Shown piece after piece: positions 42,686 through 62,400 of a DNA stretch of 64,000 nt. The notes beneath the pieces are model-generated. The model did not search any database and was not told where the DNA came from. It worked only from the letters and a program-made list of their open reading frames with translations. The position numbers and the translations under genes were made by a program. This DNA comes from Massalongia carnosa (Eukaryota), in the NCBI GenBank assembly GCA_965645245.1, contig OZ287068.1, positions 3,162,001 through 3,226,000 of the forward strand, given 5' to 3'. Every line of letters starts with the position of its first letter. Position 1 is the first letter of the stretch.

Positions 42686-43007
42686 TACCCAGTCATGTCC
42701 TGCGCGTTTTCGACCCATTTTTTAGACCCGCTGGCACGCGCACGACAGAAAAAGGCGGACACCAAAATAAGCGAATATCATCAAATTTGAAGCTGCTATC
42801 ATCTGCAAACCGATTGCCACTTAGTCATCTTATCATTCGTTTCGCCTTGGTAGGAGTCAGTATTTTTAGTGATTCGTGACTCTAAAACAGGCTTCATTGC
42901 TTATAAAGAATTGATAAATGTGTGCATGTACGATGAAAAATTAAGGTGTGAGTGTTGCGGGGGAATTTTGGTGTCCGCCTGTTTCTGTCACGCGCAGTGG
43001 CTGGGTA
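42686..43007. mobile_element. MITE-like non-coding relic with inverted repeats
   Basis: GACAGAAAAAGGCGGACACCAAAAT (42744-42768) is the reverse complement of 42965-42989 with one mismatch; outer ends TACCCAG / CTGGGTA. Confidence 0.6.
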
Positions 43008-43331
43008 CAAAGGCTAGTCCTAAAAACCGCTTAACGTTCGGCAGGAAGCCATTGTGGCTAATTAGCAATTTCCCAGCTTACGACCCCAAATAAGACAAGA
43101 GCCGCACACACCGCATGTCACGGTAGGAGTCCAATGATCCTATCCATGTGGTGGAACAGTGTTTTGCTATCGACTATACTACATGATAATCTGATGAAAC
43201 GAACACAAGGAGGAAAACAGTAACTGCTCGCAGCCTATAACTCCTGAAAAGGGACACTAAGCCCAACTCGGTAAGCTCGCAGTCTAACCACAACAATCAT
43301 CCGCCGGCACTAAACCTGTAGGGCTTCATGT

Positions 43332-43769
43332 TGTCAAGGACTGGGTTAGGGATTGAACTAATGTTCCTAAGACTGGGATTGGGTGATCAAGATGTCTTTA
43401 TTAATGAAGCTATAGCTAGGGGATGGTTTGCTATACAAGACGTCGGACGAGGAGTCAACTATCTACAGGATATGTCCTCTTTTTATACCTGAGCCAGCCC
43501 CTTCTTTCTCATGTTTTACCTTCACCCTAGATGAGAGATTTTGGTGATGGTGGCGGCGATAAGGTGGAGCAATAAGTGGGCCCGTGGATGTGATCGTTCT
43601 AGCGATAAGAGGGTATAGTGGAGTGAGGAGATTGGTGGAGTGGAGTAAGGGGTTTATTCAGACTCATACCGAGGATGAATCTGAATAGGCTTTCAGGTGG
43701 CTTTTACCTCGATCGCCGCTTGACGGTTCGGTAATCATTAGGTTTTAACTCAAACTTTATTTCATGACA
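43332..43769. mobile_element. Solo LTR, family A copy 1
   Basis: TGTCA...TGACA termini, 5-bp TSD CATGT (43327-43331 / 43770-43774); homologous to 57696-58143. Confidence 0.92.
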
Positions 43770-44964
43770 CATGTAATGTACGAAGGATGACGCTGAAAGT
43801 CCTTGCTAACGCTAAATATGCAGCTAAAAAAGCCACTTTACATGGGTATATTTGCATGGATAGATATTTATTACATATCAATCAATCGAATAATCGCATG
43901 AAACTATTTAGAGTTACCACCTCCATCATCTTTATCACTCACATTCATCGCTGTCAGTGCTTTTTCGTTTGAGATGAGCGCGATGATATCGAAAACGGCG
44001 ATCTTCTTTATTATACGGTCGTACGACTCCGATCTCTCTACCTTCTCTATACTCGTTACCTCCGTCCAACAATATCACCTCGTCAACATGTCGCTTTATA
44101 CGTTCAATCCAGGACTGAATTCTTTTCTGCCTCAACTCCTCCGTCCAGCACTTTGTCCAGGTCTTTTCAGCCTCAATACGAGTCCGCGGAGCACCTAATC
44201 GAGTGGTTCTTCGCTTCATCCAGAACCAACAAGGCTCGATCATGTTCAGATCAGGAGAATTTCCAGGCCATAACAGACGCATGACGTTGAAATCCATAAA
44301 GATCAGATTTTGATGTTTGGATGCGTGACTGGGGACCTTGTCTTCCTGTACGATAGTGTTTGGTCGATCTATCATACATTCTTTTGCAAACGGAAGAAGC
44401 TTAGGAATTAAGACGAGTTTTGATAACGATACCAGTCCACACCTCCCTTGCCATCTCGAACGACTTTACCGTGTGTTTTATCCCATTTCCAGATAGGTTT
44501 TCGACCTCCTGGATTACGTAGCTTCATTCGTCTCATGCTGGTTTCTAACTCCCAATTCTCTTTAGCTTCTGATTCTAAAGTCTCATTGAGTTTATCTAAC
44601 TCAATTTGAGCCTCTCTTTTCTCTTTTGCAGTCTCTGTTTTCCAGATATGAAAAGGGCCTTTCTTTTCGTACGAAAAACAGCCCCAAAACAAAAACTCGG
44701 AGCATCCTTTCCATCTACGTCGAATACACGTTTTAGCATACATTTCTTTCGAGGTACGCCACTAAGTCTTCTTCCACGTCTAGAACCCAATATAATGCTT
44801 GTTTCGTCAGTCCATATAACGTTCTTCCAATCATCAATAGTCCAGTGCTGATATCGCAAACAAAATTACAGACGAGCCTCTTTCATGATCGAATCTAGAC
44901 CTGGCTTTTTCGTGCTTTTACAGGGGCGAAACCCATTCTGTTTAAGCGTACGAAGTATAGTAGT

Positions 44965-45994
44965 TGTAATACGGATGGCGCTAGAGGGATACGTGATCGC
45001 CTATGGCGGTTGCGGATTAACTAGCGTGGACCATGCCGTAGTATGAAGTCGCATAAGCCGTCGAGGCTGACACACTGCCATCTTGCCCCGAAACTTCGGA
45101 GTTATTGTTATCACGTTCTTGACTACTTACAGATCAAACACCTGTCGAGGCCGTGGTGGTAGATTGCCATGGAGTGTAAGGCGGACTCCTGTGGAGACGC
45201 CGAGGAACTCTATATGGAATCTACTGGCCTACTCGGAGCTACTGGATCTCTTGATGGTTCAAGAGAGGTAGCAGGGGGCACGGCTCGCTGGACGCAGCTT
45301 GAGTATGGCCTCCCCGGTGTAAACTTCAGCTTCAACCTTTATTACTACGTTGGTAGTGATGTCGGCTGAATGAACCTACATGACCTCGTTGTCTAGACCT
45401 TGTGTCTAGAGGCAGGTCCGCAGTGTAGCGAGGTATTCAGTCGGAGGTAACCTTCCATCACTAGGTAGTGGTGACGGCGAAATGAAGCTACATAGCCTGA
45501 GGCATGTAGTGAGGGATCTAGCCGGGGGTAGAATTGTTCTACCTTGCAAGGGAAGATCTAGAAGGCTGCTCGAGGCTGACTAGATGATCCAGCGAACGCC
45601 GAGTTCGTGGATGGATCCTGAGGGATGGTTGGATGTAATGCGATAAAGTCGGATGTGGATTGCAAGGCTGTAAGGCTCGCAAGGCTCCCAAGGCTTGCAA
45701 GGCTCCTAAGGTTCCAAGGCTCCCAAGGCTATAGGCTTGGGGTGAGTAGGATAAATATCAGAACGAATCTTGTAGTATTCGTTAGCAATTAGTCTTTATT
45801 CTATGAACAACCTACGTTTGGGTCTCGGACGAGATCTCTTGGTCTGAGCACTTCCACATCCATTAGTTCTTTGGATCACATATACTCTCGGAGACCAGCA
45901 CGTAGTAGCTATCTTCCTCCTCTCACGCTGAGCATTTCCCCTTTCGAGATCAGTGTCGCTCGTGATAAGCTTACTGGTCTCGTAGCCCATTACA
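44965..45994. mobile_element. Solo LTR, family B (~1 kb), inserted in Tc1-A
   Basis: TGTAAT...ATTACA termini, TSD GTAGT (44960-44964 / 45995-45999); internal CAAGGCT-type tandem repeats ~45663-45735. Confidence 0.9.
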
Positions 45995-46080
45995 GTAGTG
46001 GAGGAGAGTTTATGATCAAAGCCAATCATAGCTGATGATTTTTCTCTGCTATTTCGATCTTGCACTACATTATCCAATAT

Positions 46081-48246
46081 CCCTCTCGCTGTCATTCTAG
46101 CACCCCCCCCCAAGCTAAACCATTGTTGGTTAGAAAGCGCTAAACCTTAAACTTTTGACCAATCAATGTTATTCCTATTCACAAGAAGTTGTACGGAGTA
46201 TCAGATACCTATTTACTCGTCCCCTATCATATGAATAGCTTCCCAACAGCTGGCTTTCTTACAGCAGGGCCTGATTGGATTACATCCTCCACAAGCCCAT
46301 ATAGTCTGAGCACCCCTTCGCCTTCTTTTACGCCCATCGACACTTATTTCAGCCAGTGGCTCTCCCTTCCGCTTTGAAGGTCGTTTTTTCTCGGCGTTAC
46401 ATTGCACACATCTTTTTCTGCCTTCAAGACGAACGTAATGATGAATGGGAGATGGTACTAAAGCATCAATCGTGGTATTGATGCTTATCTTTGATGAGCC
46501 GGGCCTGATGCCCGCTTGATTTGATATCAGTTCAAGAGCAATCCGACGAAGAAATTCAGAACGAGTAAATTTTATCTCCTCGGAATCGAAAGAGTTCAGC
46601 GAGTAAAGTTTATAGGCATTCAATCCGGCTGCATCTAAAATAAAAATGAACAAAGGCCACCAGTAACGATCCGTTCGACGATTGTATGAGTAAATCGCTC
46701 GTTGCTGAGCGTTTCCATCCGATCCCCGCATATGAAGATTATATTCTTTGATTGGGGCTGGTATCGGTAATCCTAAGGGCCGTTGAACCTCTTGATTGAG
46801 CAAGGGAATGGAGTGAGCCAGAGTTGATGGGAAATACGATACAATAGGTTGAAGAGAGGTCTCGGGAATTCCATATCTCTTGTGCGGATTTATATAGTGC
46901 ATTTCGTACAAGTCCTGAGGAGAATGACCGGTGGTCATGTACTGCACACCATTATTATCCACCCAGCCCATACAAAGCACCTTATCGTCGACCACCATAT
47001 GGGCCTGAAGACCCCAGTCTTTTCCTTTTGAAGTGACGTCCCGTATGGCCAACAATTCTTCTGGAAAGCCCGAGCCCTTTTTAGCAGTTCCACTGGCAGC
47101 TATTCCGATTGATCGAAGTGCCTTGAATAATTTCGTACTAGTAAAGAAATTATCACAGAAAAGATGATAATTCAGTGAGGATGGAAGTTCTTTACATAAC
47201 TGAATCACTAGCAAAGCACTAGGAGTTAGTTTATCTTTTGGCAAAAATCCCAATTGTCTGACTGTTTTCAATTCACTTATTCTGCTACTCTTCGAGGCAA
47301 ACATAAATGACAACAGATAATTATCCTGACAGAGACTGTAGATTTTAAATCCTTTATGGGCACTTTTTGTAGTAATCTGCAAGGTATGTCGAGAACGGCC
47401 CTTGAATAACACCAGCTGTTCATCTATAGATATCATACTTCCTGGTCTGCAATGTTTCAATGAAGTCTTTCGGAAATCAGTAGCCAACGGTTCCAGTTTC
47501 TTCCACCAATCAGGTCCTTGACCAAGTCCGATAGGCTCAGTCTGTCCATTATTGATTTTCAAAAATCGTTTGATTTGTTGAAATCGACCAAGCGACATCG
47601 CGGACAGAATAGGCATGATAACTGGTTTGTCAGGACGTTGATTCCAATAATCCTCTGTAGCAGGTAGATGATCGAGTCCCATAAGAATTAATATGCCCAA
47701 AAAAACCTCAATTTCCGAGTCAGTAGTGTCAGTCCAAACCCGATGATTGTTCTCCTTCTCCTTTTCCATGTAGTTATTTGCCTTGATATTGGTATGATTT
47801 GCGATGATACGACAATGCTGCCTTGTTATAAATAACCGAAATAATCCCAAAGGATTTCGAGAATCGTTTTCAACGAGCGGAACAAAAGGCCTGTTTTCAA
47901 CCCGAATGGGGGTATATTTTGAGGAAATAGGGGGAAGGTCGATTAAAATATCCCGAACACTTCTTTTGCGATTTATTTTATGTTGCTTCGCTGAAATGGG
48001 AGATTTGTCTGATACACTCGGGATTTCTTCTTCATTGAGCGTCATAATTATAATATCAATTCCGAAGCTAGAAGAATAGTAATTTATGTGATTTATTTTG
48101 ATTGAATGACCGAATAGTATTCTTTGAAAAGTAAACAAACGCGCAAACACTATAGAGAAAACTAATGTTCTGATGACTCATCGGTGCGGAAGCTAGTCCA
48201 ATATAGATTAGCTTGGGAGGGGGGTGCTAGAATGACAGCGAGAGGG
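46081..48246 (-). mobile_element. piggyBac-like DNA transposon inserted in Tc1-A
   Basis: Perfect TIR CCCTCTCGCTGTCATTCTAGCACCCCC at both ends; single long ORF. Confidence 0.93.
46213..48045 (-). CDS. piggyBac-like transposase (DDE_Tnp_1_7), uninterrupted
   Basis: SIDEQ, FCDNFFTS, YNLHMRGSD catalytic region; WWPLFIFILD; C-terminal Cys-rich domain CVQC...CGGC...CC...CWEAIH. Confidence 0.92.
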   Translation of the reverse strand: MTLNEEEIPSVSDKSPISAKQHKINRKRSVRDILIDLPPISSKYTPIRVENRPFVPLVENDSRNPLGLFRLFITRQHCRIIANHTNIKANNYMEKEKENNHRVWTDTTDSEIEVFLGILILMGLDHLPATEDYWNQRPDKPVIMPILSAMSLGRFQQIKRFLKINNGQTEPIGLGQGPDWWKKLEPLATDFRKTSLKHCRPGSMISIDEQLVLFKGRSRHTLQITTKSAHKGFKIYSLCQDNYLLSFMFASKSSRISELKTVRQLGFLPKDKLTPSALLVIQLCKELPSSLNYHLFCDNFFTSTKLFKALRSIGIAASGTAKKGSGFPEELLAIRDVTSKGKDWGLQAHMVVDDKVLCMGWVDNNGVQYMTTGHSPQDLYEMHYINPHKRYGIPETSLQPIVSYFPSTLAHSIPLLNQEVQRPLGLPIPAPIKEYNLHMRGSDGNAQQRAIYSYNRRTDRYWWPLFIFILDAAGLNAYKLYSLNSFDSEEIKFTRSEFLRRIALELISNQAGIRPGSSKISINTTIDALVPSPIHHYVRLEGRKRCVQCNAEKKRPSKRKGEPLAEISVDGRKRRRRGAQTIWACGGCNPIRPCCKKASCWEAIHMIGDE

Positions 48247-48298
48247 ATAGCTTGCTCTACCTCCGGTGTAACCTTTTTGGGTCGTCCTGAACGAGGTG

Positions 48299-49855
48299 TG
48301 TCACGGATTACACCGCTCTAACCTCAGGCAACACATGACGTAGTGCTATTCACCTTATCTAACCGAAAACGGATCTAGCACTGCCTGTAGTGACATTATC
48401 AATACACCTACGCCGGGGGGTTATTTGTTAGGGAGGTACAAAGCAGGGGGGGGGAGACAGGGGGGAAGACAGGGATTATTTTAGATCGGGCGCAATAAAG
48501 TTGACTAATCAAACTTCTTTAAAATTTGGTATGCTTTCCTTCGGCATCAATAACTGCCTGACATCGCTCCATTATGGACTCGATCAGCTCATTTAACTGA
48601 TCAGCACCGACCGCATCCCATGCCTCCCTCACTGCCTGACGTAGTTGATCGTAGGACAGTTTGTCTTCATTTCCATAGTGCATCTGAATCCAATTTTTCA
48701 TGATTTCCCATACAGTTTCTATAGGGTTCAAGTCAGGCGAGAATGGGGGCCATAGAATAGTCGAAATATCGCGTTCTTGAAGTTCCTGAATAGTAAAATT
48801 TGCTGCATGACCAGGCGCGTTGTCTTGCATGAATTGTAGCTCCGGATGCATACGTATCCAACCATGTACAAGAGGCACTATACGCTCGCAGTATGATTCC
48901 TTATTGATAGTCCCCCAAATCCTTCTCCCAAAAGAGACATGGCCCTTTTTGTATACCCGCAAAGCAGCCCCAAAACATCCATCCGCCTTGTCGTCTCAAA
49001 CGAGGAACAATACAGGTAGGGTCCAACTCTTCATGAGCTCGTCTGGTTACCCATACGCGTTGATGACGCGTGCCGTTGACCCAAGTCTCGTCGCTCCACA
49101 GTATAGAATTCCATTGCTCTTTCGTCCAGTTTAAATGCTCCAATGCCCATTCCAATCGTCGCAGGCGATTTACTTCGGAAATCGGAGGTTTGCTACGAGC
49201 AATGCGTCTCGAAAATCCTTCTTTTTTCAATGCTTTTCGTATAACATCTTCAGAGACATTCCAACCAAGCTTCCAAGCTAGTTGAGCGTAAGAAAGTCGC
49301 CTGTTTTCTGCAGAAGCGCATACGAAATTGATCAACATTTGACGAGCATCGTCACTAATAATGCTGCGTGGGCCGCAATTTTTTTTCTGCGGAGTAGGGC
49401 GACCGGCGGTGCAGGAGTATTGGACTTGACGAATGGTAATGCCCAAATGTTTAGCAATTTGCTCGTATGACCATCCAATTTCTCTTAATGTGGTGACCTG
49501 AATACGCTGGTCTCGCGTTAAATCAGACTGCTTTTTGGGCGTTGAGGGGGGGGGCACTGTTGCTTCCATTCTGAATGATCGAAATGAAATTTCTTTTTGG
49601 GATGAGATGCCTAAGAAGTAAACCTCAAAAGGTTAGCGGATTTTTACCCCTGCATGTACACCACTAACAAATAACCCCCCAGAAAAGGTGTACTCGTGGT
49701 ATAAGCAGTTCAACGACGGTAATGAAAACCTGCATTAGGCTTAGCATGGGTATGAGTGTTTATTAACCGGCGATCTGTACATAGCTTTCTTTCTTCATCT
49801 TACTAGTTTTCGTACATAGTCCCTATTAGATTTCTATCTAGGTCGACGTGCTACA
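48299..49855. mobile_element. Solo LTR, family C (~270 bp), inserted in Tc1-A and split by Tc1-B
   Basis: TG...CA termini, TSD AGGTG (48294-48298 / 49856-49860); removing it restores the Tc1-A peptide EDAP-RSGRPKKV. Confidence 0.85.
48405..49690 (-). mobile_element. Tc1/impala-like DD34E transposon (Tc1-B), one frameshift in the transposase
   Basis: ~45-bp TIRs CACCT....GGGGGGTTATTTGTTAG.G..GTACA..GCAGGGG, TA TSD; ORF 49569-48519 with WSDETW, QDNAPGH, SPDLNPIE; +1 shift near 48920. Confidence 0.93.
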
Positions 49856-50936
49856 AGGTGCATCTTCTATGTATTCTACTTTTAAAACACGAGATACAGT
49901 TGGATCATATCCACGCTGTCGTGCTTTGATTTTGAGAGCTGAAATCGATCTTGTGGAGACTCCAGTCACTTCTTGCACGATTTTCGCCGCAATTCCGTGT
50001 TCTACAAGCGCTAAAGCCTGTATTCTTTGTGCAATCGTGAGACTATTGCTCTGTGCATTGGGCATGATAATGATGATGAATAAAACCTTCTACTGAATAT
50101 CAGATGTAGTAAACAGAAGCAATTCGAGATTTTCTAGACTATTTTAGTACTGTATTCCCCTTGTAAGCTAATAAACACTAATGCACGTCTCAATGTACGC
50201 TAGCATGGACTTTCAGCGTCATCCTTCGTACTCACCGCCTGTTCACTCCACAGGCTGTGGTTAACTAGCGTGATTTTCGAAGCAAGCAGTTCTCACAACT
50301 ATTCTGCCAGAGCCAATGAGCATAAAGCTACTTAGTGGGAAGTCTGACAAACATATTATGTAACTCTTACTCGAGTAAAGGTGACGTCAACCGCAGGCCT
50401 TCTTGACTTTTTTGTTTCAAGTCAAATAAAGGATTTGAGAAATTATCGACCGCGTGTTGATGATATTCAGAACAATTGGATAAGTAGTTCACAGAATGGG
50501 GCCTGTGATGTATACTCTGCTACCAAAATACCCTATTTCTGCGCCCAATCACTAGTTGGCTACTCACCATCGCTTTAATACCAGCATCATATAGTAGAGA
50601 ATCCAACTAGATCACCGAGAGCAAGTTAGGACGCTGCGCATCGTTCTCGCGTGTAGTTTAGTGTTTTTTTACGCCCCTTAAACCAAAAACTCCTTGAAAT
50701 GAAAACTTCATCACGAGAGCGTTGGTGTACTAGTGTTAATTCCCATAGCGAGCAACGCATAAAAGATTAAAACTATGTTATAGCATTACATCCGTATACA
50801 AACAACTTTACTTGAAGAACCGTTGGCGCGGTAAATCGGTCGGATTAAGAGATACATACGAGTATATCACACATAGGTCTAGCCACACGAATTACTGGCG
50901 CGCTAGGGATTGAGAGGCAGAATGATTGAGGCTGAC

Positions 50937-53917
50937 ATGAGTAGTAGTTCTGCAGGGTATATGGACAATATCGCCCGTGACCAAGCTCCATACCACGATT
51001 TTCTCTCCTCGACCCATTCAGTCGACTGCAAAAAGCCTGCCTGTCCCCGTTTTGCGCCGCGAGCGACTTGCTGATCAACGAGCGTTCTACATACCACGGA
51101 TACCCTCTTTGGCGGCCGCACGATGGACCCGGGCCCCTCCGCTGCAGGCCCGCTGTCGCAGATCCGGAGACGGCGGCGCCTCTTTCTTGGCCTCCTCCTG
51201 AGGCTTACGTTGATGTCGACGCCGTCAAGCGTGAGTCTCAGGCCTATGCCACCCACGGCAACAACGAGGCCGCCATGGCCGCCACCATAAGGCGCGTCTG
51301 CGGGATGCGGGAGGAGGATCGGAGGGCCAACACCCTTAAGACGTACCGCAAGTGCTGGCATCTGTGGGAGGTGACTACGATAGGTATGCCCTGCAACTTT
51401 GGGCCTACGCTAACATCCTACAGAAGTGGTGCCGACGTCGCAATTTCCTTGACGGCGTCCTTGTGTGGGAGCGGAAGATGCTCCTCTTCCTCGAAGAGGT
51501 CGTCCTCCGCCTGCGCTTCGTCCCACGTCCCAAGCTCACAGGCGCAGCAGCGCAGGCCAGGCGGCGGGATCAGAATCGCCAACGGCAGGCTAAGCGCCGC
51601 GCGTTGAAGAGGGGGAAGGGGAAGGCGATGGAGGCGGTGGAAGCCTCGCCAGCGGTAGAGGGAGAGGAGGTGGAGGAGGTGGAAAAATTCGAGGAATTCT
51701 CCGACGGCGAGGAGCTCGTTGAGACGGTGAGTCGGCCCCTGAATTCGAATTCATGGATAGAATCATCTTTTTGTAGCTTACTGGCTCGTCTTGCAGCAAG
51801 CCGACGACCCTTTATCCCGGCCCCTGGCGCCCGATAGCGTGGAATCGAGCTACGTCTCTGCCCTCTGCGCCCTCTTCGATGACCAGCATCTCGAAGAGAG
51901 TTTGGTGGTGCCCCATCCCAGAGGGAAGGCCACCAATGCCCTGATGACGCGCTTACGCATCGATTGGAGCGCTTTCAAGCGGGCCTCGTTCGAGGATCGC
52001 GCGATCCACGGCCTCACCGACGGCTACACGACTGAGCAGGCCGCTCAATTGTCGGCAATGCTGCTCGCCGGGGGCAAGGTTTTGGGAGAGGAGGGCGTGG
52101 CGGGCGGCGAGTGGCACCTCCTGCGGACTCGCCTCGACTTCCTCCTAATGCATTCGATGATGCTGCGGGAGGGAGTCAACGCGGAAGGCTGAGCTACCTG
52201 ACCTCTGCGCCTACGACCTCCCTAACGAGGGGTCCGAATGCCTTGCGTTGATCCTTCGAATTGGCCAGGGCAAGAGCATTCCTCTGGCGGACGGGGGCAA
52301 CTCGCGCCGCCAGCATTACCATGGTGCTTTGCGGAGCAGAGATGTCGTCCTTTGTCCTCTCGGCGCCCTCGCCCACTGGCTCGTCTTGCGCTGGGACCTC
52401 CTCCTGGAGAAGCGGCCGGACTTCCGGGATCGATCTTCGTGGTATTTCACGAAGGTCATCTCCGGGAGCCTGGCGCGATCTAAGGAGGAGATCTCCGACA
52501 AAACACAGGCCCGATGGATCAAGCCGGCTTTGGATGCTGTCGGCGTCGACAGCTCCAAGACGGTCCACACCATGCGGCAGTCCTCGTCACGGCTGGCCGA
52601 CATGTGGGAGGTCCCCGCGGACCAAGTAAGTACTCTACGATTCATGGCCCCTTATACTTACTAGCATTACCCTTATATCAACTACTACAGATCATGAGAG
52701 CAGGCGGATGGGAACGTGGCGTCTGGGCCACTAACTACCTCACTCGCCTGCCGCGTGTCTACATGCGTCGCGCCGCCGGCTTTGGCAACTCCCCCGGGAG
52801 TTACTTTTTGAGAAGAGGAGGACACTCACCGGATCTAGCCCTGCAGCGGCAGGTGTGGCCTTGGGTGGATGACGCTCTGGCGGCGTACAAAGGCGGTCTT
52901 TTTCCTGATGCGGATAAGGCAGGGAAGAAGGTTCTGGAGATGTTGCTGCGGCTGCGTTGTGTCTTCCTGCAAGACACGGCGCTTCTACAGCCTCAGTTTC
53001 CTGAGCTTTCGCTCTGGAGACACCAAGTCTTCAGAGATCCCCTTTGGCCTGCGTTCGCGGCGAAGATACGGGAGTTGGAGGCTGTAGAAAAGGAACCTTT
53101 GCACGTGGCCATCCACGGCGTGCTGCCTCTTGTTGCTGACTCCGTTGATGGCGTCAGTAACAAGGTCAGCGGTGTTGCAATCAAGCAAGATCGCACGCTC
53201 AACGCTGTGGAGAGGTTGCTCTCCGGGCAGCGCCAGCTGACGACCATCTTGAGTGCGCTGCCGGCGGCAAATGCCCAGGAGATAGCTCGGGTCCTGGGTT
53301 CGCAGCTTTCACAATTGCAGGCCACGGTCTCGACGCTGCCTCGATCCTTTCTGACGGTTCCTGTGGAGGCTGTTCGGAGGGACTGGCTGCTGGACGAGGC
53401 TTCTTGGCGAGGGCAGGCGACTGCTCTTGCGACGGCGGCGCACTCCGTTGGTGAAGAGCCTGCTGCGTCGGCGTCCTCGTACGTCGACGCAGTCGCTTCT
53501 CTCCTTCCTACACCTTCTGTCGTCCTCACTTCCGTCCCCGGAGAGACGTCTACGGTCTCTGCGCCCTGTGGCTCCCTCCCCCAAGAGGGGCCGCCTCAAC
53601 GTCCTCCTGGCTGCCCGGCGGAGCCCATTCTCGGCGGCGTGACCTCGGCGGAGGCGGTGTTGGAGGAATTCGCGGTGGGGACGTTGGTGGAGGGGGTCCA
53701 GCGTGCATCTCTCGACGAGTTGGACCGCCTCTTTGGGGCTAAGTGGAGGTACACTCCTGCCCTGAGGCAGCGGTTCTACGTCAAGAGACGGATCTGTCAG
53801 TACCTTCAGGGGAAGGCGAATGAGCAAGGGAGGGATCCGTGGGATATTGTGCGGGAAGTTGACAGTTTGGGGCTCTCTGGACATCAGATCTCTAAGCGTA
53901 TTGACGAGAAAAGCTAA
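50937..53917 (+). mobile_element. CryptonF tyrosine-recombinase transposon gene (NDC10-II/YR plus GCR1_C-like domain), frameshifted
   Basis: Introns 51371-51423, 51727-51796, 52626-52690; LR(G)ESTR, HTMR, RAGGW, NYLTRLPR..MRRAAGF; C-terminal LDELDRLFGAKWR...KRRI; extra base near 52168. Confidence 0.88.
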
Positions 53918-56046
53918 AGCTCCGGCAATTGATCTCGATGCTGCATTGACCATTGCAAGAGAGGTCGCCGAAAATCTAAACCAATCAACGATGAAAGCGG
54001 GCGAGGAGAGATGCGTTTTGCAGCTGTGCACGTGGCATGCGGCCGAGGCAATAAAAAAACGACTGATCAAGGCAGGAAAATATCCCCAGGAAGTGCGCAA
54101 AATGCTGGAGACTCTGATTTGGGATTATATAAAATCCCTCACTATTGATGAGTTGGATGAGAGACGAAGAAAGTTGCTGAATGAACTTCATCCCGCAGAA
54201 AAGGTTAGTAGTGATATATCAAATTAAATTTCAAGCGAGTTAGGGCTACTGCTAACGCTACCTCTTTCGCAGGATTATCTCATGAATTTCTATCAACGTC
54301 AAGAAATTCAATTCGTGCATGCATATACTACTAAACTCCCTAATCTAGGCGCACACAGCACACAGCGTTCAGAAGGTCTACATTCATTGGTTAAAAATGT
54401 GACCAATAGAAATATTCCTATAAGACAATCGGTGCAGAAAATATGTGATGAGGTGTGGAAAAAAAAATAGATCAGGAGATTTTGTGCAATCAACAGCGAA
54501 TACGCAATCCTAGATTGATCGATAGAAATGCTTTTACTTTACTCATTGGGAAAGTTACGCATCATGCCATTGGCCTCGTTTCAAGAGAACTCGATGCCGC
54601 CAAATCATTAGCTGAACGAATCCTTTCTATTGTCCCTGATGGTGGAAGCTGTGTTTATGATTGTGAGTTGCCTTTAAGGTACGGTCTCCCATGCAAATGC
54701 TGGTTGTATAAATGCATCATCGACTCGGTCCCTATTCCCGTTTCCCTCATCCACCTCCGCTGGTTTTTTGATGGCCCACCTTATGCGGTCTCTTGGCAAA
54801 TGACCTTCGATTTCGCTCGCGGCTCGGAGCCCGAGATCGAAAAGATCGTCGATGAGGTCGAAGGGACGGGAGAGATTGAGGCGGATAAGGATGAGGTCGA
54901 GCTCGAAGAAGGCGTGTTGAGTAAGGATAGATTTCGCCGCGGGGGCCTTGATTTGCTACATTCTATGGCATATCAATCTATTGACCTGCATCAATCAATA
55001 GAAGATTCTCATCGAAGGGAGGAGTACGCTCGCGAGCATGCTCACATCGTTGAAAAGTTCAATAAGAAATGGCAAAAGAAGGAGCTGGTAAGACCTCTCA
55101 TCCCCACCACATTCCCCGACGAAATTCGGCCCAAAGAAAACCTCATGTATAAGAAAGGAGGGAGTCGTCGACGTGCCTACACTGGTCGCGAGGCAGCTGA
55201 GGCTAGAGAAACTGAACAGCAACGTACTAGGCGAAGGGACTCTATTGAACAAGGGAGGAGGCTTAGATATAATAGATTGCGTGCTGGGGGCGACGATGAG
55301 GTTGAAGGTGAAACAGAAGGTAAAATCACGATGTTGCAAAGTTATTGCGCTCGGGTCGGCTAATATTGGGTACAAGTACAATAGGTTTAGGAGAAAAATT
55401 AGTTATGGAGAGAATCGAAAACGCGTCTATCGTCTCCGACGACGATGACGAGGTGCAGTATATAAGCACTCAGCCCATTCTCGGTCGTTCTATGGATCCT
55501 ATGCTTCCTTCGGATGACGAAAATGATATTATTCTTACATCAGAAGCCTCGTCGGATTCGCTCGAAGATATTGATGATGTGCTTGCCAAGCATAGTCAAA
55601 AAGCCCTACCTCAGGCAGCGCCGGCTCCATCTCTTTATAGTCTTAGCCAAAACGTGCGCGCCAGTCAAATTCTCCCTACTTCCTCTGCAACAACGCGAAG
55701 GTCTCGGGGTGTGGCGAAGAAATCAAAGGCTCAGTTGGAGTTGGAATCTCAGCAAAGAGTCGAGAAATCAGTCAAACAGGCTAGGGCTCAAGCGAGAAAG
55801 GAAATGGCGATGAGAAAGGTGGCCAAAACCATGAAGCCTAGAAAAGATGATGTATCGCAACTGGCTGACGAGTTTTTGGAGTTGAAGTCATCGCAATAGG
55901 TAGATTTGTAGGTGTTGAGTCAGTAACAGCAACATTATTAATACGTAGTGTAACTTCTAGCTTGTACGCACCCTGGATGAGTAGTAAAATGGCTGTTTAC
56001 TAGTAAAGATTTACACAGGGGAGACGGTCGGGGGGGGGACTGTCCC
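53918..56046 (+). mobile_element. 5'-truncated Mutator-like (MULE) transposon
   Basis: LQLCTWHA (CxxH), NLGAHSTQRSEGLH (catalytic E), SWIM-like CVYDC...YGLPCKC; frameshift in poly-A at ~54460; candidate right TIR ending GGGGGACTGTCCC at 56046. Confidence 0.8.
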
Positions 56047-56311
56047 TAAGCATCTCGAACTTTGTAAAGTGGTACGAGGAATGCCAAATATGCGAGCACC
56101 GCATATCTTGCTTTCAAGTGGATTTTCTATTAGAAACTGCTTAGCATCATTCGCGTGACAGTATCATTACAATTCATGATTGTTAAATGAACAGTTGACG
56201 GCATAATGTTGAAATTACTACGGAGGTGACTGTTTATAGCAGTCATGGCAGTCTGCAGGGCTGAGCTAGAACTAATGGGGCTAAGCGAGTATTACAACAA
56301 TGATGTTAATA

Positions 56312-58447
56312 CGGAGGATGACACAAAAAGTCCTTGGATGCGCTAAGAATGGCACTAAGGATTTAGCGCTGCATCAATGCCCCTTTTCCATATTTGATTT
56401 ATCATCTTTATTTTTCACATCAACCTCATTTTCAAACGATATAATGCATTAAAAATCAGGTCTATATGCAGACTTATGACATGATCAGTCTACATCACTG
56501 CTATCAGATATAATGTCTTTGCGATAGCGAATGCGACGATCTTCGGAATTATATGGCCGAATCACACCATTGTCTCGACCTTCTCGATACTCGTTTCCTC
56601 CATTTAAAGCGATGACTTCTTCTATATGTCGTGGAATTCGTTCTATCCATTGCTGAATTTATTTTTGTTTCAGAGTTTTTGTCCAGCACCGAGTCCATGC
56701 TTTGATAGCCGTAATGCGATTTCGAGGTGCTCCTTTTCGTGTGGTTTGCCTTTTCATCCCAGGCCAACATTGCTCGATCATGTTCAAATCAGGAGAATTA
56801 CCCGGCCACAATAAACGCAAGACTTCTGCATCCATAAAGACGAGGTCTTGATGTTTGGAAGCATGACTAGAGGCCCTGTTCTCCTGCAAAACAGTATCGG
56901 GACGATCTTTTATACATTCTTTTGCAAACGGAAGAAGTTTAGGAAGAAGAATAGTTTTTTGATAACATACCAGTCGATGCCCCCTTTGCCTTTTCGAGCC
57001 ACTTTTCCATGCTTTTCATCCCATTTCCAGACCGGTTTTCGACCTCCTTTGGTACGCAGTCCCATTCGTTTCATGCCTATTTCCAATTCCCAATTTTCTT
57101 TCGCTAGCGGCTCCAATGCCTCATTGATTTTGTCGATTTCTCCTTGAGCGGCACGTTTTTCTGCCGCTGTCTCCGGCTTCCATATATGAAAAGGACCTTT
57201 CTTTTCATACGAAAAACAACCCCAAAACATGAATTCGGAACATCCTTTCCATCTACGTCGAATGCATGTTTGAGCATATTTTTCTTTTGGAGTTCGCCAC
57301 TGAAGTCTTCGTCCTCTTCGAGAGCCTAACACAACACTAGTTTCATCGCTCCATATGACATTCTTCCAGTCATCGAGAGTCCAATGACAATAACGCAAAC
57401 AGAATTGCAATCGAGCCTCTTTCATTGCTGAATCAAGGCCTGGTTTCATGGTAGATTTGCAGGGACGAAAGTTATTGCGTCGAAGAACATTGAGAATAAG
57501 TTGTAGATGAGACTTCGTGCTCATATCCCAAAACGGCTGAGGATTTTTCTCTACAATTTCGATCATGACGAACGTTGTCTAAAACGGCCTGTTCTACCTC
57601 AGACGTCACTTTAGGAGGACGTCCTGAACGACATGCATCTTCTACGTATTCTACCTTCAATATTAGCGAAACAGTGGGATCATATCCTCGATCTCTGTCA
57701 AGGACTGGGCAGGGGATTGAACTAATGTTCCTAGGAATTGGATTGGGTGATCAAGATGTCTTTATTAATAAGGCTATAGCTAGGTGATGGATTGCTATAC
57801 AAGACGTCGGACAAGGAGTCAACTATCTAATTAACTTGTCCTTCCTTTTATATTTGTCTCGAACCCCTTTGCATGAAGATTCGATCAGTGTTCATCTCCC
57901 CCTATTAGGAGACGTACGGCACGAAGGTTTGACGAGGTGTTTGACGATAAAAGGTGGAGATGAGGTTCTCCTGTCGTTGGTACGCTTTGATGGTGATGGT
58001 ACAGCTTTGACCTGAAGCCGTTGAGAGGGGTCTAAACTCGATTTAGTTAATGAGATTCTGACTAAGCTGAATAGAGGAACGGGAGCTTAGTCAGATTCAT
58101 CTGCGGGATTGATTCTGGATCGGGTTGGTTCGATTTCATGACAATCTCGTGCCTTGCGTTTGAGATAGCTGATAGACTGAGTAGAGACTCCGATGACTGC
58201 TTGAACGACTTTGGCTGTTATGCCGTGTTCAATCAAGGATAATGCTTGTAACTTTTGACCAATGGTCAGACTATTGTTCTGAGTTCGTGATGTCATGATA
58301 TGAAGCATATAAAATTTTACTTGATGATATTTGATAAATAACAGATGCTGCACAGGTTGAAATGTACAATATCTATAAAAACCCCTATTTAAATTTTAGC
58401 GTCTTTTCTGCACAACGCTAAAAATGCACTAATGCACGCTACCAAGG
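56312..58447 (-). mobile_element. Tc1-like transposon (Tc1-C), same family as Tc1-A; degenerate, one TIR truncated
   Basis: TA+CGGAGGATGACACAAAAAGTCCTTGG at 56310; transposase 58296 to ~56485 (WSDETS, QENRASSH with D>N, SPDLNMIE) with frameshifts; right end keeps only ...GCTACCAAGG. Confidence 0.9.
57696..58143. mobile_element. Solo LTR, family A copy 2, inserted in Tc1-C
   Basis: TGTCA...TGACA termini, TSD ATCTC (57691-57695 / 58144-58148); removal restores RKARD-RGYDPTVS. Confidence 0.93.
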
Positions 58448-59441
58448 TGTTCTCTCCGCCTGCTGGGTTAACTAGCATCATTTGTCCAACAAGCAGCTTT
58501 GAGAGCCATTTTAACAGAGCCAATGAGAGGGACTTTGCTTCCCTATCACGTGCCTTTCAGACAGGTACTTAACTACATGCATCCACACTCACGGAATAAA
58601 CAACATGCCTAGTAAGATAGATTTACTTAGATCACCGAAAACCAGCCATCTTTCATTATTACTAGGTTCCCACATTTGCAGGTGTACGGACTTACTTGCC
58701 TCCTCTATAACTCGATACCGGAATTTAGAGCTCCTTGCTCTCCAAAAGAGGAATACTTTTCGTTGCAAAGCTGTGGAACTGTCTGGCGACGATATGGATC
58801 GGAGAGAGAGAAACTCAGGTCTGCTAAGCATGGAGAATGTTCGAGGAGGCCGAGCGTCGGAGGCGACAACCTACAGTATGGGGCAGGAGTCTGATAGAAT
58901 TCTAGCTAGGGGCGAGGTAAGAGGTACGTACGTCCTCCCCACCGAGGCACCTCTTATTTCAGGAGCACTTCGAGTTCGTTGAGGATCTACAACCTATGTA
59001 CGAATAGCGATTCTGGGGCGAAGACTTGGAAATGAAGATACGTATGCTTTGGTAAGGAGTCACTGGGGTACAAAGCGAAAATAGCTATTCACGAAATGCT
59101 GGGTTATTATTACTCTCTATGCCGCCGGCCCGACGATCTTACAAACATCTTCTTTTCAAGCCGGCTGAACTGATTGATTGATTGATTGATTTTTCTTACG
59201 CCGATATGACACCAGCTGAAGCTGGCCCATGCGGGAGATACTACATAGGCTATATAAAGGCAGAAAACCCGAACGGGTAAAAAACTGCTCCTGCGTACCA
59301 GGTTTGTAGAGGACTCGCTCTTTCCCCGGGTTGATCTCTACGGTTTGGGAAACCCGCTATACCCGTTATGCGCCTGAGTAAGTGCAAGAATAAAAGAGAA
59401 GAAAAGAAAATAAGTAGAAGAAAAAACCAATTCTCCTCTCA

Positions 59442-62400
59442 TTATTGCTCCGTCATTTGCGCGGCAATGGTGTACTGTGTTAGTATGCCCGTACGCATAA
59501 GCCATGCAGTGATTATTTTGATCGCTTTGGGGTCTGTTATCAGTTTTTGATAATCCAGCGAGCCAGCTGCACGCAACATATCGATTCTATTATGCAATCC
59601 GCAGAACATTATCACATGTTTCGCCGTTTGAAAGCGGCTTCCGCACAGGCAGGCCGCGGACTCAATGTCTGGCACCTTGCGTTTGAATAGAAAACTCGCT
59701 AACCCGATTTTCTCTGTTCTAATTTGAATTGCGAGGGAGCTTTGCGCCTTATTCAGCAGCTTGTGCGTGTTCAACCTGTTTTTGTGCAATGGACCCGACT
59801 GTGCTATTGTTGGATCAAGCGTATGTATTGATTGATACGCTATCCATTTGTCCTTCCATTTTTCTTTAAATCGTTTCGCTATGATTCCGTCTCTTTCTCT
59901 TTGAAGTGCGGCATATTCTGCTCGTTTTTCCTCTTGTGCATTCTCCGCTTTTTCCCATGGTGGTGTGCGTTTGGGCTTTCTCTTTGTTGATACTTCAGCT
60001 GTCAGCTTGGCCACCCATCTCTGTCTACGAGCTCCCGGTGTTTCTCCAATAATCCGTTGTCGCCCTCTTTTCCCTTTCAATCTCGTTCTGATTTTCTCGC
60101 ATGCCTGTTCTATGACTTTTGCCTGACCGTTGTGTTGTAGCCTCGATCTACCTTTGGCCTGCAGATGATCCAAATGTTGCGTCAATGGACAGATGAATGT
60201 TTCCGCCTGTAACACCTCGATGGGTGTGGCCCTGTACGCTCCGGCTACTACTCGTAAACATTTGTTTTGTACGATCTCGAGTTTGCTTTTCCTCGTGACT
60301 TTGACGTGCTTTTGTGTTTCCTCCGGCGTGTGCCATACCAGAGAACCATGGGTCATTGCCGGGCGTACCACCGCCGTGTACACGTGACGGGCTTGTAGGA
60401 GGGTCGCACCCCAAGTGGCTGCGGCGATTCTAGTCAGCGCTCTCGTTTGTCTCGTCATTTTCTTCTGTATCTCTTTGTAGTGCGCCGACCAATTGAGCCT
60501 CGTGTCTATGTACACCCCCAGCACTCGTACAGATTTCGTGACGTTGAGTAGTTTGCCGTTTACTGTGAAGGAAGCTTCGAGATTGAATTTCTTGGGATTT
60601 TTTGCTAGATGTATGAGCTCGTATTTATGCGGCGCGAACACGGAGCCGTGGCGTTTCGCCCATCGTTCGCAATTCTCGTGTATTTCTTTCAATGTTTTGC
60701 AATTTTCTTCCGTGGATTTGCCATATGTCAGGATGTTCACGTCGTCTACGAATCCTATGCCTGCCGCGTTTGTGCTGGGTCTATTGCAAATGTCTAAGAG
60801 GTCCGCATTGTAAAAGAGATATAGAATGGGAGATAGAGGAGATCCCTGAGGGATTCCTATGCTCAGCGGAAATGCGTTAGTGGTGCGTTGATTAATCGTG
60901 AGCGTGGTTTCTCTTTCTTTCAAGAAACTATCCGTCCATTTGGCTATCCACTCTGGGATCTTTCGTTTTCTCATGTTGTGAATGAGCCTACGATGAGAGA
61001 CGGTGTCAAAGGCTCCCGATACGTCTATGCTCAATAGAGATGCCACTTTATCGTTACCCTGATTCCATACGGTGTGCACTTGTTCAGTGAGCAGCTCCAG
61101 TGCTGTTTCCGTTCCGCGGCCCGGCCTTGCACCCATTTGAGTATCCGGGATCAGTTTAAATTCTTCCGTCAGATGGCTAATTTTCCTTGCTATAATGGAT
61201 TCCAATGCTTTGCCCAACGTGTTCAACAACGCTATGGGTCTCCATGCCTTGGGATCCGTATAGTTTCCTTTTCCTGGCTTCTTTAGCGTGATAGTGTTGG
61301 CGATTTTAAAGACTTTCGGATGATATCCTTCATTCACACATGCTTGAAAAAGTGGTGTCAGCAATTTGATTAGGTTTTCTGAACAGGCTTTGAGAATTCT
61401 ATTTGTGATTCCATCCGGTCCTGGGGCTTTGTCTGGCTTTGGCTTTCGCAGCGCCGCCGCCACTTCTTCTTCCGTTATCAGTGCTGGACATTCTGGTGTT
61501 GGAGGGTACGAATATCCTACGAGATCCCCGAGATCCGCGTTAGGAGGAGGGGGAAAGAAGGACTTCTTCAGCATATTTACTCTCTTCTCGAACGTGTCTG
61601 CTATCGTATTGGGATTTTGTGCTGTTGCTAACGGGGGCATTTTTGGAATTTCTCTTGGTGCGTCGCTTCTGTCTTTGCCCCATTTTGCGAGTCGGAAGAG
61701 TCCTGTTCTTGATGCTGCAACTTCGGCCATTTGTTCTCTGAAATGAAGATTTCTTGCCTTACCGATGATTTTCTGTTTTTTGTCGTTCATTCTGATGTAG
61801 TTTTTCCAGTCTGACAGATTTCTTTCCGCCGTCCAGATCCTACGAAGCCTGCGGGTCTCCTTCGTTGCCTCCTCGCACTCTCTATTCCAGAAGGACTTCG
61901 CCTGGGGACTAGGTTTAGCCCATGGTACCGCCTCCTGAACGATTCTTTTGAGGTAGTCTTGAATATCTGCAGTGTATGCATCAATTTCGTTGGCGCCTCG
62001 TACGACGCGTGGTGTGGGGGCATTTCTCTCAACTTCTCTCAGTTTATTCATGTCCAGGAGTTTCCAGGCTCTTCGGCGGGGAGGCGTAAGGGGTTCACAG
62101 GTGAGGCGGAGCCTCGTCGATATTGGTACGTGATCTGAGTCTTGATTCAGCTCCGGGACTGTGATACAGTGTTCCAATCTTTCTACGAGATCTTCCGTCA
62201 TGAACACCAGATCGATGGTGCTGAATGAGTTTCTTGCCTCCCATGTCACTGTTCCTCTTGGCAGGGTGAGCGAAAGATTTTTACTTTCAATGATGTCTAG
62301 TAGCTGTTCGGACGCCTCGTGTTGACCTCGCACTCTCGCACCTCCCCAATGTGGATGATGAAGGTTGAAATCCCCTAGCAAGATGTGTTCTCCTGGCCCG

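Follow-up and report, generated by a model that had tools for sequence, protein, structure and literature searches.

Two young Tc1/mariner copies from anciently split subfamilies adjoin paralogous 82-nt blocks in Massalongia carnosa

The window analysed here is a stretch of 64,000 nt from the Massalongia carnosa contig OZ287068.1 (positions 3,162,001 to 3,226,000 of the forward strand), and all coordinates below refer to it. Tc1-A (43778..50231, minus strand) is an A-type Tc1/mariner copy recognised by its TIR pair, a DDE_3 match and frame analysis. Its left (3') TIR is found at 43778..43811 on the plus strand and its right (5') TIR at 50198..50231 on the minus strand; each is 34 nt long, the two are 94% complementary, and the TA is duplicated at both ends of the element (ATG-TA-CGAAGG ... 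CCTTCG-TA-CTC). The DDE_3 domain (PF13358) scores 36.9 bits against a cut-off of 28.6. A minus-strand GTGAGTA does run across the right TA, as the initial annotation pointed out, but this splice-donor-like motif is a bare 7-mer without gene evidence. Tc1-A is now dead: four insertions are nested in it, and its reading frame has private frameshifts and one in-frame stop. The nested sequences include a high-copy insert of about 1035 nt (44959..45993; highest depth bins; joint 44958>45994 in all four runs), a piggyBac-like element on the minus strand (46078..48249; DDE_Tnp_1_7, E 1.8e-52; 34-nt TIRs, 97% complementary; joint 46079>48249 in runs X4 and X6) and a further insert (48294..49855; joint 48293>49856 in X6 and X1). 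The latter contains Tc1-B (48403-49692), an unrelated Tc1 element with TIRs, DDE_3 and HTH_Tnp_Tc3_2, whose span is matched exactly by an X4 contig of another locus. A solo LTR-like element (43332..43769, TGTCA...TGACA, with the 5-nt duplication CATGT) lies 8 nt to the left of Tc1-A.

Tc1-C (56310..58447, minus strand) is a C-type copy. Its left TIR is intact (56310-56336, 85% identical to the Tc1-A TIR over 27 nt), while the right one is cut after the inner ~10 nt, so that about 31 nt are missing relative to Tc1-A, corresponding to the outer ~24 nt of the TIR and ~8 nt of flank. The TA can thus be read on the left side only, and the earlier claim that both elements occupy the same position is, as far as Tc1-C is concerned, inferred and not seen. 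The DDE_3 domain scores 29.7 bits (cut-off 28.6), and HTH_Tnp_Tc3_2 reaches 28.2 bits, which is below its cut-off of 31.5. The reading frame is damaged by a private frameshift, an additional frame change relative to Tc1-A and one stop. Nested in Tc1-C is another solo LTR-like element (57696..58143, duplication ATCTC, joint 57690>58144 in all four runs), 88% identical to the one beside Tc1-A. The DNA between the two loci (50957..56309, plus strand) is made up of repeated elements as judged from Pfam, depth bins and contig ends, and includes a GC-rich ORF with NDC10_II and GCR1_C domains (52484-53917, Pfam). Depth bins and contig ends further place a high-copy element directly at the left TA of Tc1-C.

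Tc1-A and Tc1-C are ordinary fungal Tc1/mariner (IS630-Tc1-mariner) copies of the DDE_3 type, and the A-type and the C-type are two co-resident, anciently split subfamilies of one family. A protein search found 247 relatives at E<=1e-10 among 546 candidates, many with PF01498 and PF13358, and PF01498 is also among the precomputed domains of the close protein relatives. The named database relatives are fungal Tc1-like transposons ('Tc1' of Pyrenophora tritici-repentis; 'Transposase Tc1-like' of Fusarium, Penicillium and Cladobotryum), which share with Tc1-A and Tc1-C the DDE_3 catalytic domain, TIRs of ~34 nt starting with TACG(G/A)AGG, the TA duplication and putatively an HTH_Tnp_Tc3_2-like region; the relatives are 1.4-2.3 kb in size. 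TIR pairs were found in 33 of 80 related metagenome loci, with the signature TACGGAGG-N7-CAAAAGT, lengths of 1436-2278 bp and a TA on either side; in the window the TIR pattern has three matches, all at known ends. The true ends of the family are the TIRs. The 33 distant relatives have unrelated flanks and sit at unrelated TA sites. The elements themselves do not differ from other fungal Tc1-like transposons; the sole oddity is a common 82-nt block outside one TIR.

This block, here called H, is present in two copies. H_A (50240..50320) lies outside the 5' TIR of Tc1-A, is single-copy and is continuous with the unique flank. Its paralogue H_C (58448..58527) follows the truncated right TIR of Tc1-C without a gap. 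The two are 76.8% identical over 82 nt (blastn E 1e-8 locally and 1e-6 when the whole window is compared with itself), and their Smith-Waterman score of 57 was reached by 0 of 300 shuffles (mean 18.9, maximum 28), so the right-flank similarity proposed in the initial annotation is real. Using nhmmer, exactly two H copies were detected in the window (E 2e-25 and 1e-24; next E 2.4) and none away from these Tc1 elements: both family copies adjoin H, and both H copies adjoin a family member, in each case at the 5' end. The 5' TIR faces H across a gap of ~9 nt in Tc1-A and without a gap in Tc1-C, where the TIR is cut. The sequences of the two copies display neither TIRs nor a consistent target duplication, their folding z-scores (-1.55 and 0.12) give no signal, and no Rfam model matches H even at E<=10. 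Two motifs are invariant, GGTTAACTAGC and CAGAGCCAATGAG, spaced 52 nt from start to start, the second being a consensus CCAAT box. No tRNAs were predicted, so H does not look like a known structured RNA gene serving as target; across the window, the one Rfam match at gathering level is to a snoRNA (19707-19806).

When it comes to the left flanks, the similarity that had been suggested is at chance level. After removal of the solo LTR 8 nt from Tc1-A the Smith-Waterman score was 18 against a null mean of 19.4, with 247 of 300 shuffles as good, and alignments anchored at the TA, using nine parameter sets, were equalled by 4 to 208 of 500 shuffles, a result that is at most marginal once multiple testing is allowed for. 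Neither the DNA between the loci nor that on the right of Tc1-C holds a counterpart of the Tc1-A left flank. Homology is thus found on the right side of the insertions only. Two further matches put forward earlier also fell away: TAGATCACCGA (~50608 and ~58628) gives the highest-scoring match outside the 82 nt, but 31 of 300 shuffles reach its score, and CCAAATA..GAGC..ACCGCAT (~43085 and ~56085) appears in no significant alignment. Four flank comparisons gave no outer inverted repeat (137-412 of 500 shuffles as good).

Both Tc1 copies are within ~1-2% of their own multi-copy subfamilies. An X1 contig of 543 nt matches Tc1-A at 44265-44805 with 3 letter differences and 2 gaps (~99% identity), and its depth of 919.7, compared with 21-46 for single-copy bins of the same run, identifies it as collapsed multi-copy. 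Other genomic copies have an extra T after 44417 (106 of 106 depth units in X3, 920 of 920 in X1, 10877 of 42400 in X4 and 53371 of 153071 in X6), which restores the frame at a private Tc1-A frameshift also found independently by frame analysis. Likewise, an extra G after 56966 (49 of 49 depth units in X3, 260 of 289 in X1, 7797 of 12182 in X4 and 27699 of 46772 in X6) restores the frame at the private frameshift of Tc1-C, again found independently by frame analysis, and Tc1-C shares 98% identity over 177 aa with a database protein. Tc1-A is a young insertion with near-identical copies elsewhere that lack its private frameshift, and Tc1-C is a young copy of which the same can be said.

The two subfamilies are nevertheless far apart. 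The interiors of Tc1-A and Tc1-C are 72-76% identical (74.1% over 950 nt for 43985-44931 against 56523-57470) and the coding regions 72%. Over 424 codons the transposases differ at 93, 57 and 202 first, second and third positions, with pS 0.70, dS ~2, dN 0.18 and dN/dS ~0.09; they have diverged under strong purifying selection, and synonymous sites are saturated. This agrees with the initial annotation, which had described transposases conserved at the protein level with many silent changes and elements that diverged while active; the private frameshifts at 44417 and 56966, which other copies lack, point the same way. The internal non-coding DNA is unalignable (5'UTR 47%, 3'UTR plus TIR 52% identity), compared with 75-77% for H, and by a Jukes-Cantor hand calculation neutral DNA at K~2 is expected to be ~30% identical. 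The A/C split is thus much older than the H split. Given the saturated A/C divergence and the young copies, the two H blocks resemble each other far more than a passive duplication as old as the A/C split would allow; at 76.8% identity they are also much too diverged to have arisen by copying during or after the insertions.

Assembled contigs show how H is joined to its surroundings. Contigs covering 50163-50592 (X3), 50163-50986 (X4) and 50164-50853 (X6) start inside the TIR and continue through H_A into unique sequence; all three have single-copy depth and 0 differences. As H_A has no near-identical copy elsewhere it was not recently copied, and its age equals or exceeds that of the adjacent, young Tc1-A. 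For other C-type copies, the contigs terminate at ~58448, the junction between Tc1-C and H (58393+55, 58404+44 and 58414+34 by arithmetic from the contig table; X3 and X1, the last two also X4), and these copies appear to leave the Tc1-C sequence exactly there. The unique contig to the right of Tc1-C starts at 58525 (X4) or 58517 (X3), and the behaviour of the 31-mer graph suggests that the terminal part of H_C and the next ~25 nt may recur elsewhere in the genome.

Neither co-transposition nor passive duplication explains the association with H. An old segmental duplication of element and flank followed by neutral decay would account for a flank identity (75-77%) close to that of the coding region (72%), but it is refuted by the dN/dS, the unequal codon positions and the more diverged internal non-coding DNA, and is also contradicted by the unrelated left flanks and by the closeness of each copy to its own subfamily; it is almost certainly wrong. 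That H belongs to a larger unit still moving with the Tc1 element, as the initial annotation had offered, fits the position of H at the same end of both copies and a possible common 30-mer at 58525-58554. It is, however, highly improbable, since the interior of Tc1-A is collapsed multi-copy but H_A single-copy, other C-type contigs stop at the junction, the 33 relatives end at their TIRs next to a TA, and an outer inverted repeat is lacking. A composite or transducing unit in particular is largely refuted, the flank not being repeated with the element (H_A single-copy, 0 differences in three runs). Alternatively, H could itself be a short repeat with defined limits, being either a very small non-autonomous element or a piece of templated filler DNA, that came to lie at or close to the 5' ends of Tc1 elements (9 nt beyond the TIR in Tc1-A, within the TIR in Tc1-C). 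The sharp boundaries of H on both sides in both copies would agree with this, as would GGACTTT after H_C, which would continue the interrupted TIR past CCAAGG (chance ~4e-4 at six possible offsets, a post hoc estimate), and the presumed repeat end at ~58554, where a full TIR would end. This explanation is nonetheless improbable: H_A has no near-identical genomic source (single-copy contigs), which excludes its recent insertion next to young Tc1-A, the remainder of the presumed outer TIR in Tc1-C is unmatched (Smith-Waterman not significant) even though this copy is young, and H has no TIRs, consistent target duplication, fold signal or third copy in the window.

Equally improbable is an old one-off duplication of a Tc1 element with ~90 nt of 5' flank, the occupants of the two sites later being replaced or converted by active A-type and C-type copies. 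Such a duplication could stem from aberrant transposition in which a pseudo-end outside the element was used, from alternative transposition involving neighbouring copies or from a local duplication. The loci are 6 kb apart in the same orientation, and homology stops exactly at the left TIR end and sharply 82-90 nt past the right TIR. As the A/C split predates the H split, however, one occupant would have had to change to a subfamily with no more than 72-76% identity, which is too diverged for ordinary gene conversion. Clean TA duplications and the 94% TIR pair in Tc1-A also speak against it, and no TIR-like pseudo-end follows H, where tests of the sequence were not significant (581/2000 and 137/2000). 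Two reports on maize Ac/Ds (PMC3744419, PMC4270019) document alternative (reversed-ends or sister-chromatid) transposition that duplicates the DNA adjoining element ends and, as here, leaves a duplicated flank with one boundary exactly at the transposon terminus. Ac/Ds belongs to the hAT superfamily, and this mechanism predicts that flank and elements are of the same age, which is contradicted by the divergence data.

The best available reading is that of two independent insertions beside old paralogous H blocks, reflecting a target preference or hot spot, although its probability is judged to be somewhat short of even. The A-type and C-type subfamilies would each recently have placed one copy by cut-and-paste into a TA beside one member of an old paralogous pair of short low-copy blocks (at least 82 nt); Tc1-C would later have lost the outer part of its TIR and the first few flank bases through a small deletion. 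The common flank would then be neither co-transposed DNA nor the result of passive duplication, but a sign that the family prefers DNA at the edge of H. In favor of this are the discreteness of H, with exactly two copies in the window at the 5' ends of the only two family members there, the A/C split that is older than the H split, the youth of both copies next to an H_A not recently copied, and the canonical TA duplications, TIR pair and family ends. The ~31 missing nt hide the original distance from Tc1-C to H, which on this reading would have been the same as for Tc1-A. On the other hand, insertion in the middle of a target predicts two-sided homology, and with unrelated left flanks the edge of the target would have to lie no more than ~10-20 nt from the TA, which leaves the target-preference reading unproven. 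The association also comprises two copies (n=2), no unoccupied copy of H was seen, and the end of H_C plus ~25 nt may recur elsewhere. The site-specific insertion into a repeated target proposed initially remains the leading candidate, with one homologous flank only, and the distant relatives display no such preference: the 33 TIR-paired flanks are unrelated, the best nhmmer E for H in the 80 loci is 2.7, and CCAAT is not enriched in 63 relative flanks (11 found, 10.2 expected; 3 in the 70-105 nt zone).

A more specific version, in which the eukaryotic Tc1/mariner transposases of both subfamilies would integrate, sequence-guided or factor-tethered, at a set short distance from a conserved host module of ~82 nt, with most genomic copies beside diverged H modules, is unlikely. 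A metagenome contig with a transposase 54% identical (L037) has GGTTAA at +33 and GAGCCAATGAGAG at ~+90 from the TIR end, compared with GGTTAA at +29 and CAGAGCCAATGAG starting at +78 in Tc1-A. This spacing weakly hints that an association with an H-like module could be old; nhmmer gives the match to H no support (E 59).

Tc1/mariner elements serve as the textbook example of integration at nearly random TA sites, and their retargeting by engineering is an active field. IS630, from the bacterial branch of IS630/Tc1/mariner, inserts at TA within CTAG and is thus a superfamily member with a target preference beyond TA. This is, however, a 4-nt preference and not a block tens of nt away, and the Tc1-A site is ATG-TA-CTC, not CTAG. 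Tc1/mariner copies have also been reported in a host satellite. The likeness is recurrence in a repeated host sequence, and both cases raise the question of whether the transposase targets it; the authors' in vitro results suggest no strong bias to satellite or MITE. That host repeat is a long tandem satellite, whereas here a low-copy block is found on one side of two diverged subfamilies.

The association with H is real, and what is established is narrower than a target preference, namely that two young copies of anciently separated subfamilies adjoin older paralogous 82-nt blocks. If no further cases exist genome-wide, this would be a local curiosity in a transposon-dense region. If the target preference is true, a lineage that reliably lands beside a defined module would represent a form of target choice new to the superfamily and a useful model for how a target is chosen.

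The stretch from 42.6 to 62.8 kb of the window is a dense transposon nest. The proteins closest to its transposases are fungal (Penicillium, Fusarium, Pyrenophora, and others), lichen metagenomes are among the public runs that contain this stretch, and the window is eukaryotic and fungal. Tc1-A (43778-50231) has its transposase on the minus strand; its two 34-nt TIRs are 94% complementary, and each adjoins a TA. It is interrupted by four insertions in total: a high-copy insert of ~1035 nt (44959-45993), a piggyBac-like element (46078-48249; DDE_Tnp_1_7, E 1.8e-52), and a further insert (48294-49855) containing the unrelated Tc1 element Tc1-B (48403-49692). Contigs join position 44958 to 45994 in all four public runs, 46079 to 48249 in two runs, and 48293 to 49856 in two, so other copies of the family exist without those three inserts. 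The piggyBac-like element has an almost intact 654-aa ORF and 34-nt TIRs, and is flanked by AATAT and ATAGC, not by a clean TTAA duplication. Tc1-C (56310-58447) has the same orientation as Tc1-A, and its left TIR is intact. The right one ends after the inner ~10 nt; compared with Tc1-A about 31 nt are absent, corresponding to the outer TIR and ~8 nt of flank, and a TIR pattern search found no further right TIR in the window. A gap of 8 nt separates the left end of Tc1-A from a solo LTR-like element (43332-43769, duplication CATGT), and a member of the same LTR family is inserted in Tc1-C (57696-58143, duplication ATCTC), where contigs of all four runs join across it.

Several other repeats are found in and around the nest. 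The left flank of Tc1-A holds 31-nt inverted repeats, 90% complementary and 196 nt apart (42738-42995), which are probably a MITE-like repeat; every compared contig differs from the window here. A GC-rich (~60%) element at 52484-53917, multi-copy in the runs, combines NDC10_II (E 1.9e-13) and GCR1_C (E 4.4e-6) domains in one ORF, a pairing typical of Crypton-like tyrosine-recombinase elements. The high-copy repeat at 54234-56309 directly abuts the left TA of Tc1-C and reaches a depth of 274,015 at 56233 (27 contigs, run X4; single-copy DNA ~430-500). Pfam gave no match in the two of its four ORFs scanned at 53766-55899. On the minus strand, 59442-62825 encodes a 1127-aa ORF resembling a LINE-type endonuclease and reverse transcriptase, its family judged by eye only, and a (TTGA)n microsatellite (59163-59200) adjoins it. 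Outside the nest, a C/D-box snoRNA (snoZ13_snr52, 85.7 bits, gathering score 47) is found at 19707-19806.

Outside the 5' (right) TIR the two copies share a block of 82 nt, here called H (H_A, 50240-50320; H_C, 58448-58527). The initial annotation had described this similarity, and it is real: 76.8% over 82 nt, with a Smith-Waterman (SW) score of 57 that none of 300 shuffles reached (maximum 28). Chance is excluded for the shared right flank. An nhmmer profile built from both copies has exactly these two matches in the window, with no H-like repeat elsewhere in it. The similarity also claimed for the left flanks is at chance level; with the solo LTR excised 247 of 300 shuffled controls scored as well as the real pair, and TA-anchored tests gave from 4/500 to 208/500. 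The 11-mer TAGATCACCGA, likewise listed as shared, is also at chance level (31/300). No outer inverted repeat joins left and right flanks (four comparisons, 137-412 of 500 shuffles as good), and a host element or long TIR around both flanks was rejected on these counts. No counterpart of the left flank of Tc1-A was found in 50321-50956 (154/200 shuffles as good), in 50957-56309 (89/200), or to the right of Tc1-C (37/200). The proposal that Tc1-A is nested in an older C-like element containing H was rejected, both on comparing the left flank of A with the 5' region of C (666/1000) and on extending alignments to the left with H as anchor (12 tests, none below 170/1000). An 18-nt match between this left flank (43181-43198) and the start-codon region of Tc1-A (50064-50081; SW 24, 23/1000 shuffles) could be what is left of an older copy, or a coincidence.

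It had further been suggested, as one of two options, that the flanks belong to a larger mobile unit. Contigs from three runs (50163-50592, 50163-50986, and 50164-50853) begin within the TIR, cross H, and continue into unique sequence, with the depth of single-copy DNA and no differences, unlike the interior of Tc1-A, which is represented by collapsed multi-copy contigs. At Tc1-C the contig-end distances recorded at 58393, 58404, and 58414 (runs X3 and X1, the last two also X4) all give ~58448, and by our arithmetic they point to contigs of other C-type copies stopping there, at the Tc1-C/H junction. When 177 aa of the Tc1-C transposase were used to search metagenome contigs, 80 loci of 48-62% identity were obtained, and TIR pairs with the signature TACGGAGG-N7-CAAAAGT delimit elements of 1436-2278 bp in 33 of them, TA-flanked and in unrelated DNA. 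H was not found beside any of the 80 (best nhmmer E 2.7, best blastn flank match E 0.06), and the H pattern had no match in the metagenome contigs. The single-copy H_A, the contig ends, and the 33 TIR-ended relatives thus argue that H is not part of the mobile unit; ongoing co-mobilization is very unlikely, and membership of H in some larger unit is given hardly any weight. On the right of Tc1-C, unique contig sequence starts only at 58525 (X4) or 58517 (X3), not inside the element as at Tc1-A. Since contigs overlap repeats by 30 nt, as illustrated by the boundary near 50957-50986, the end of H_C and ~25 nt beyond it (58525-58554, GGACTTTGC...CACGTGCC) could recur elsewhere in the genome, or there could equally be a polymorphism. 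In X1 the alignment of the contigs begins only at 50454 and at 58466, which leaves 174 and 68 letters unaligned, respectively. The depth bins over H are 554 nt long, take in LTR and Tc1 sequence as well, and are too coarse for H itself.

As to what H is, Rfam and a tRNA search gave no match to it. A structured RNA was rejected (consensus fold -7.95 kcal/mol, one compensatory pair in 17, z-scores -1.55 and 0.12), as was coding DNA, where a 19-codon minus-strand frame differs 4/6/6 by codon position without third-position excess. Six-frame blastp between the two right flanks gave matches only in the H region, and the coding test of H and flanks showed no gene-like ORF. An origin of H in the UTRs of the two elements or in Tc1-B was also rejected (20 tests, smallest 62/300). 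The invariant stretches of H are GGTTAACTAGC, CAAGCAG, and CAGAGCCAATGAG, the last presumably fitting the consensus CCAAT box; by a rough estimate, 13 consecutive matches are nothing unusual at 75% identity over 82 nt. CCAAT is not enriched beside the TIRs of the relatives. Counted from its 3' TIR end, a distant relative on a soil-type metagenome contig (L037:1513-1620, transposase 54% identical) carries GGTTAA at +33 and, at about +88, GAGAGCCAATGAGAG; the spacing is similar in H_A, with GGTTAA at +29 and CAGAGCCAATGAG from +78. This flank has 14 nt identical to H_C, but with an nhmmer E of 59 and no CCAAT enrichment in other flanks the coincidence is probably chance.

The ages of elements and H were compared after cutting out nested elements by coordinates, aligning the two Tc1s, and setting reading frames per block. 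The 424 codons differ 93/57/202 by codon position, with a saturated pS of 0.70, dN 0.18, and dN/dS ~0.09. In the first three blocks 60/84, 18/27, and 52/65 amino acids are identical. Internal non-coding DNA (5'UTR 47% identical, 3'UTR and TIR 52%) is essentially randomized. The subfamilies thus split long ago with both staying functional, in agreement with the initial annotation. Both present copies are young. A -1 frameshift is private to each, near 44417 (in a run of A) for Tc1-A and near 56966 for Tc1-C, ~10 nt apart in the alignment, and other copies in contigs of the public runs have the missing base at exactly both places. A 543-nt contig at depth 919.7 (single-copy depth in the same run ~21-46) differs from Tc1-A by three letters and two gaps, and 177 aa of Tc1-C are 98% identical to one database protein. 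H_A and H_C are ~25% different (K~0.30, hand calculation) and therefore cannot have arisen by copying during or after these insertions; the young Tc1-A is no older than the H_A that it adjoins. Transitions and transversions in H number 10:10, giving no RIP-like bias. At 75-77% identity H is far too similar to have evolved neutrally since the A/C split when compared with the internal non-coding DNA, and passive duplication, which has a negligible chance of being right, is excluded. The finding is real on one flank and not explicable as duplication.

An old one-off duplication of a Tc1 with its flank, whose occupants were replaced later, is considered unlikely. Equally doubtful is that H is a small discrete unit or filler attaching at Tc1 5' ends; its sharp boundaries and the GGACTTT directly after H in Tc1-C agree with this, but H_A is single-copy, and the TIR remainder after H in C is that 7-mer only (SW 581/2000 and 137/2000). 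The nearest published parallel encountered is Mboumar, a mariner from the satellite DNA of ants; the in vitro work on it suggested that it has no strong bias towards the satellite (PMC2581405). No account of a site-specific fungal Tc1/mariner was found in a search of open-access text, though one may still be in print. The case for site specificity consists of two copies and one flank; a shared target preference or hot spot is weakened by the unrelated left flanks, by distant relatives that show no such preference, and by n=2. Both elements belong to a widespread Tc1-like family of fungi and are ordinary examples of it. The simplest remaining account, held tentatively and at somewhat less than even chances, is that each subfamily would have made one canonical insertion, independently of the other, bordering one of two old paralogous copies of H, and that the Tc1-C junction would later have lost a few bases in a small deletion; a target preference or hot spot would then be common to both subfamilies.
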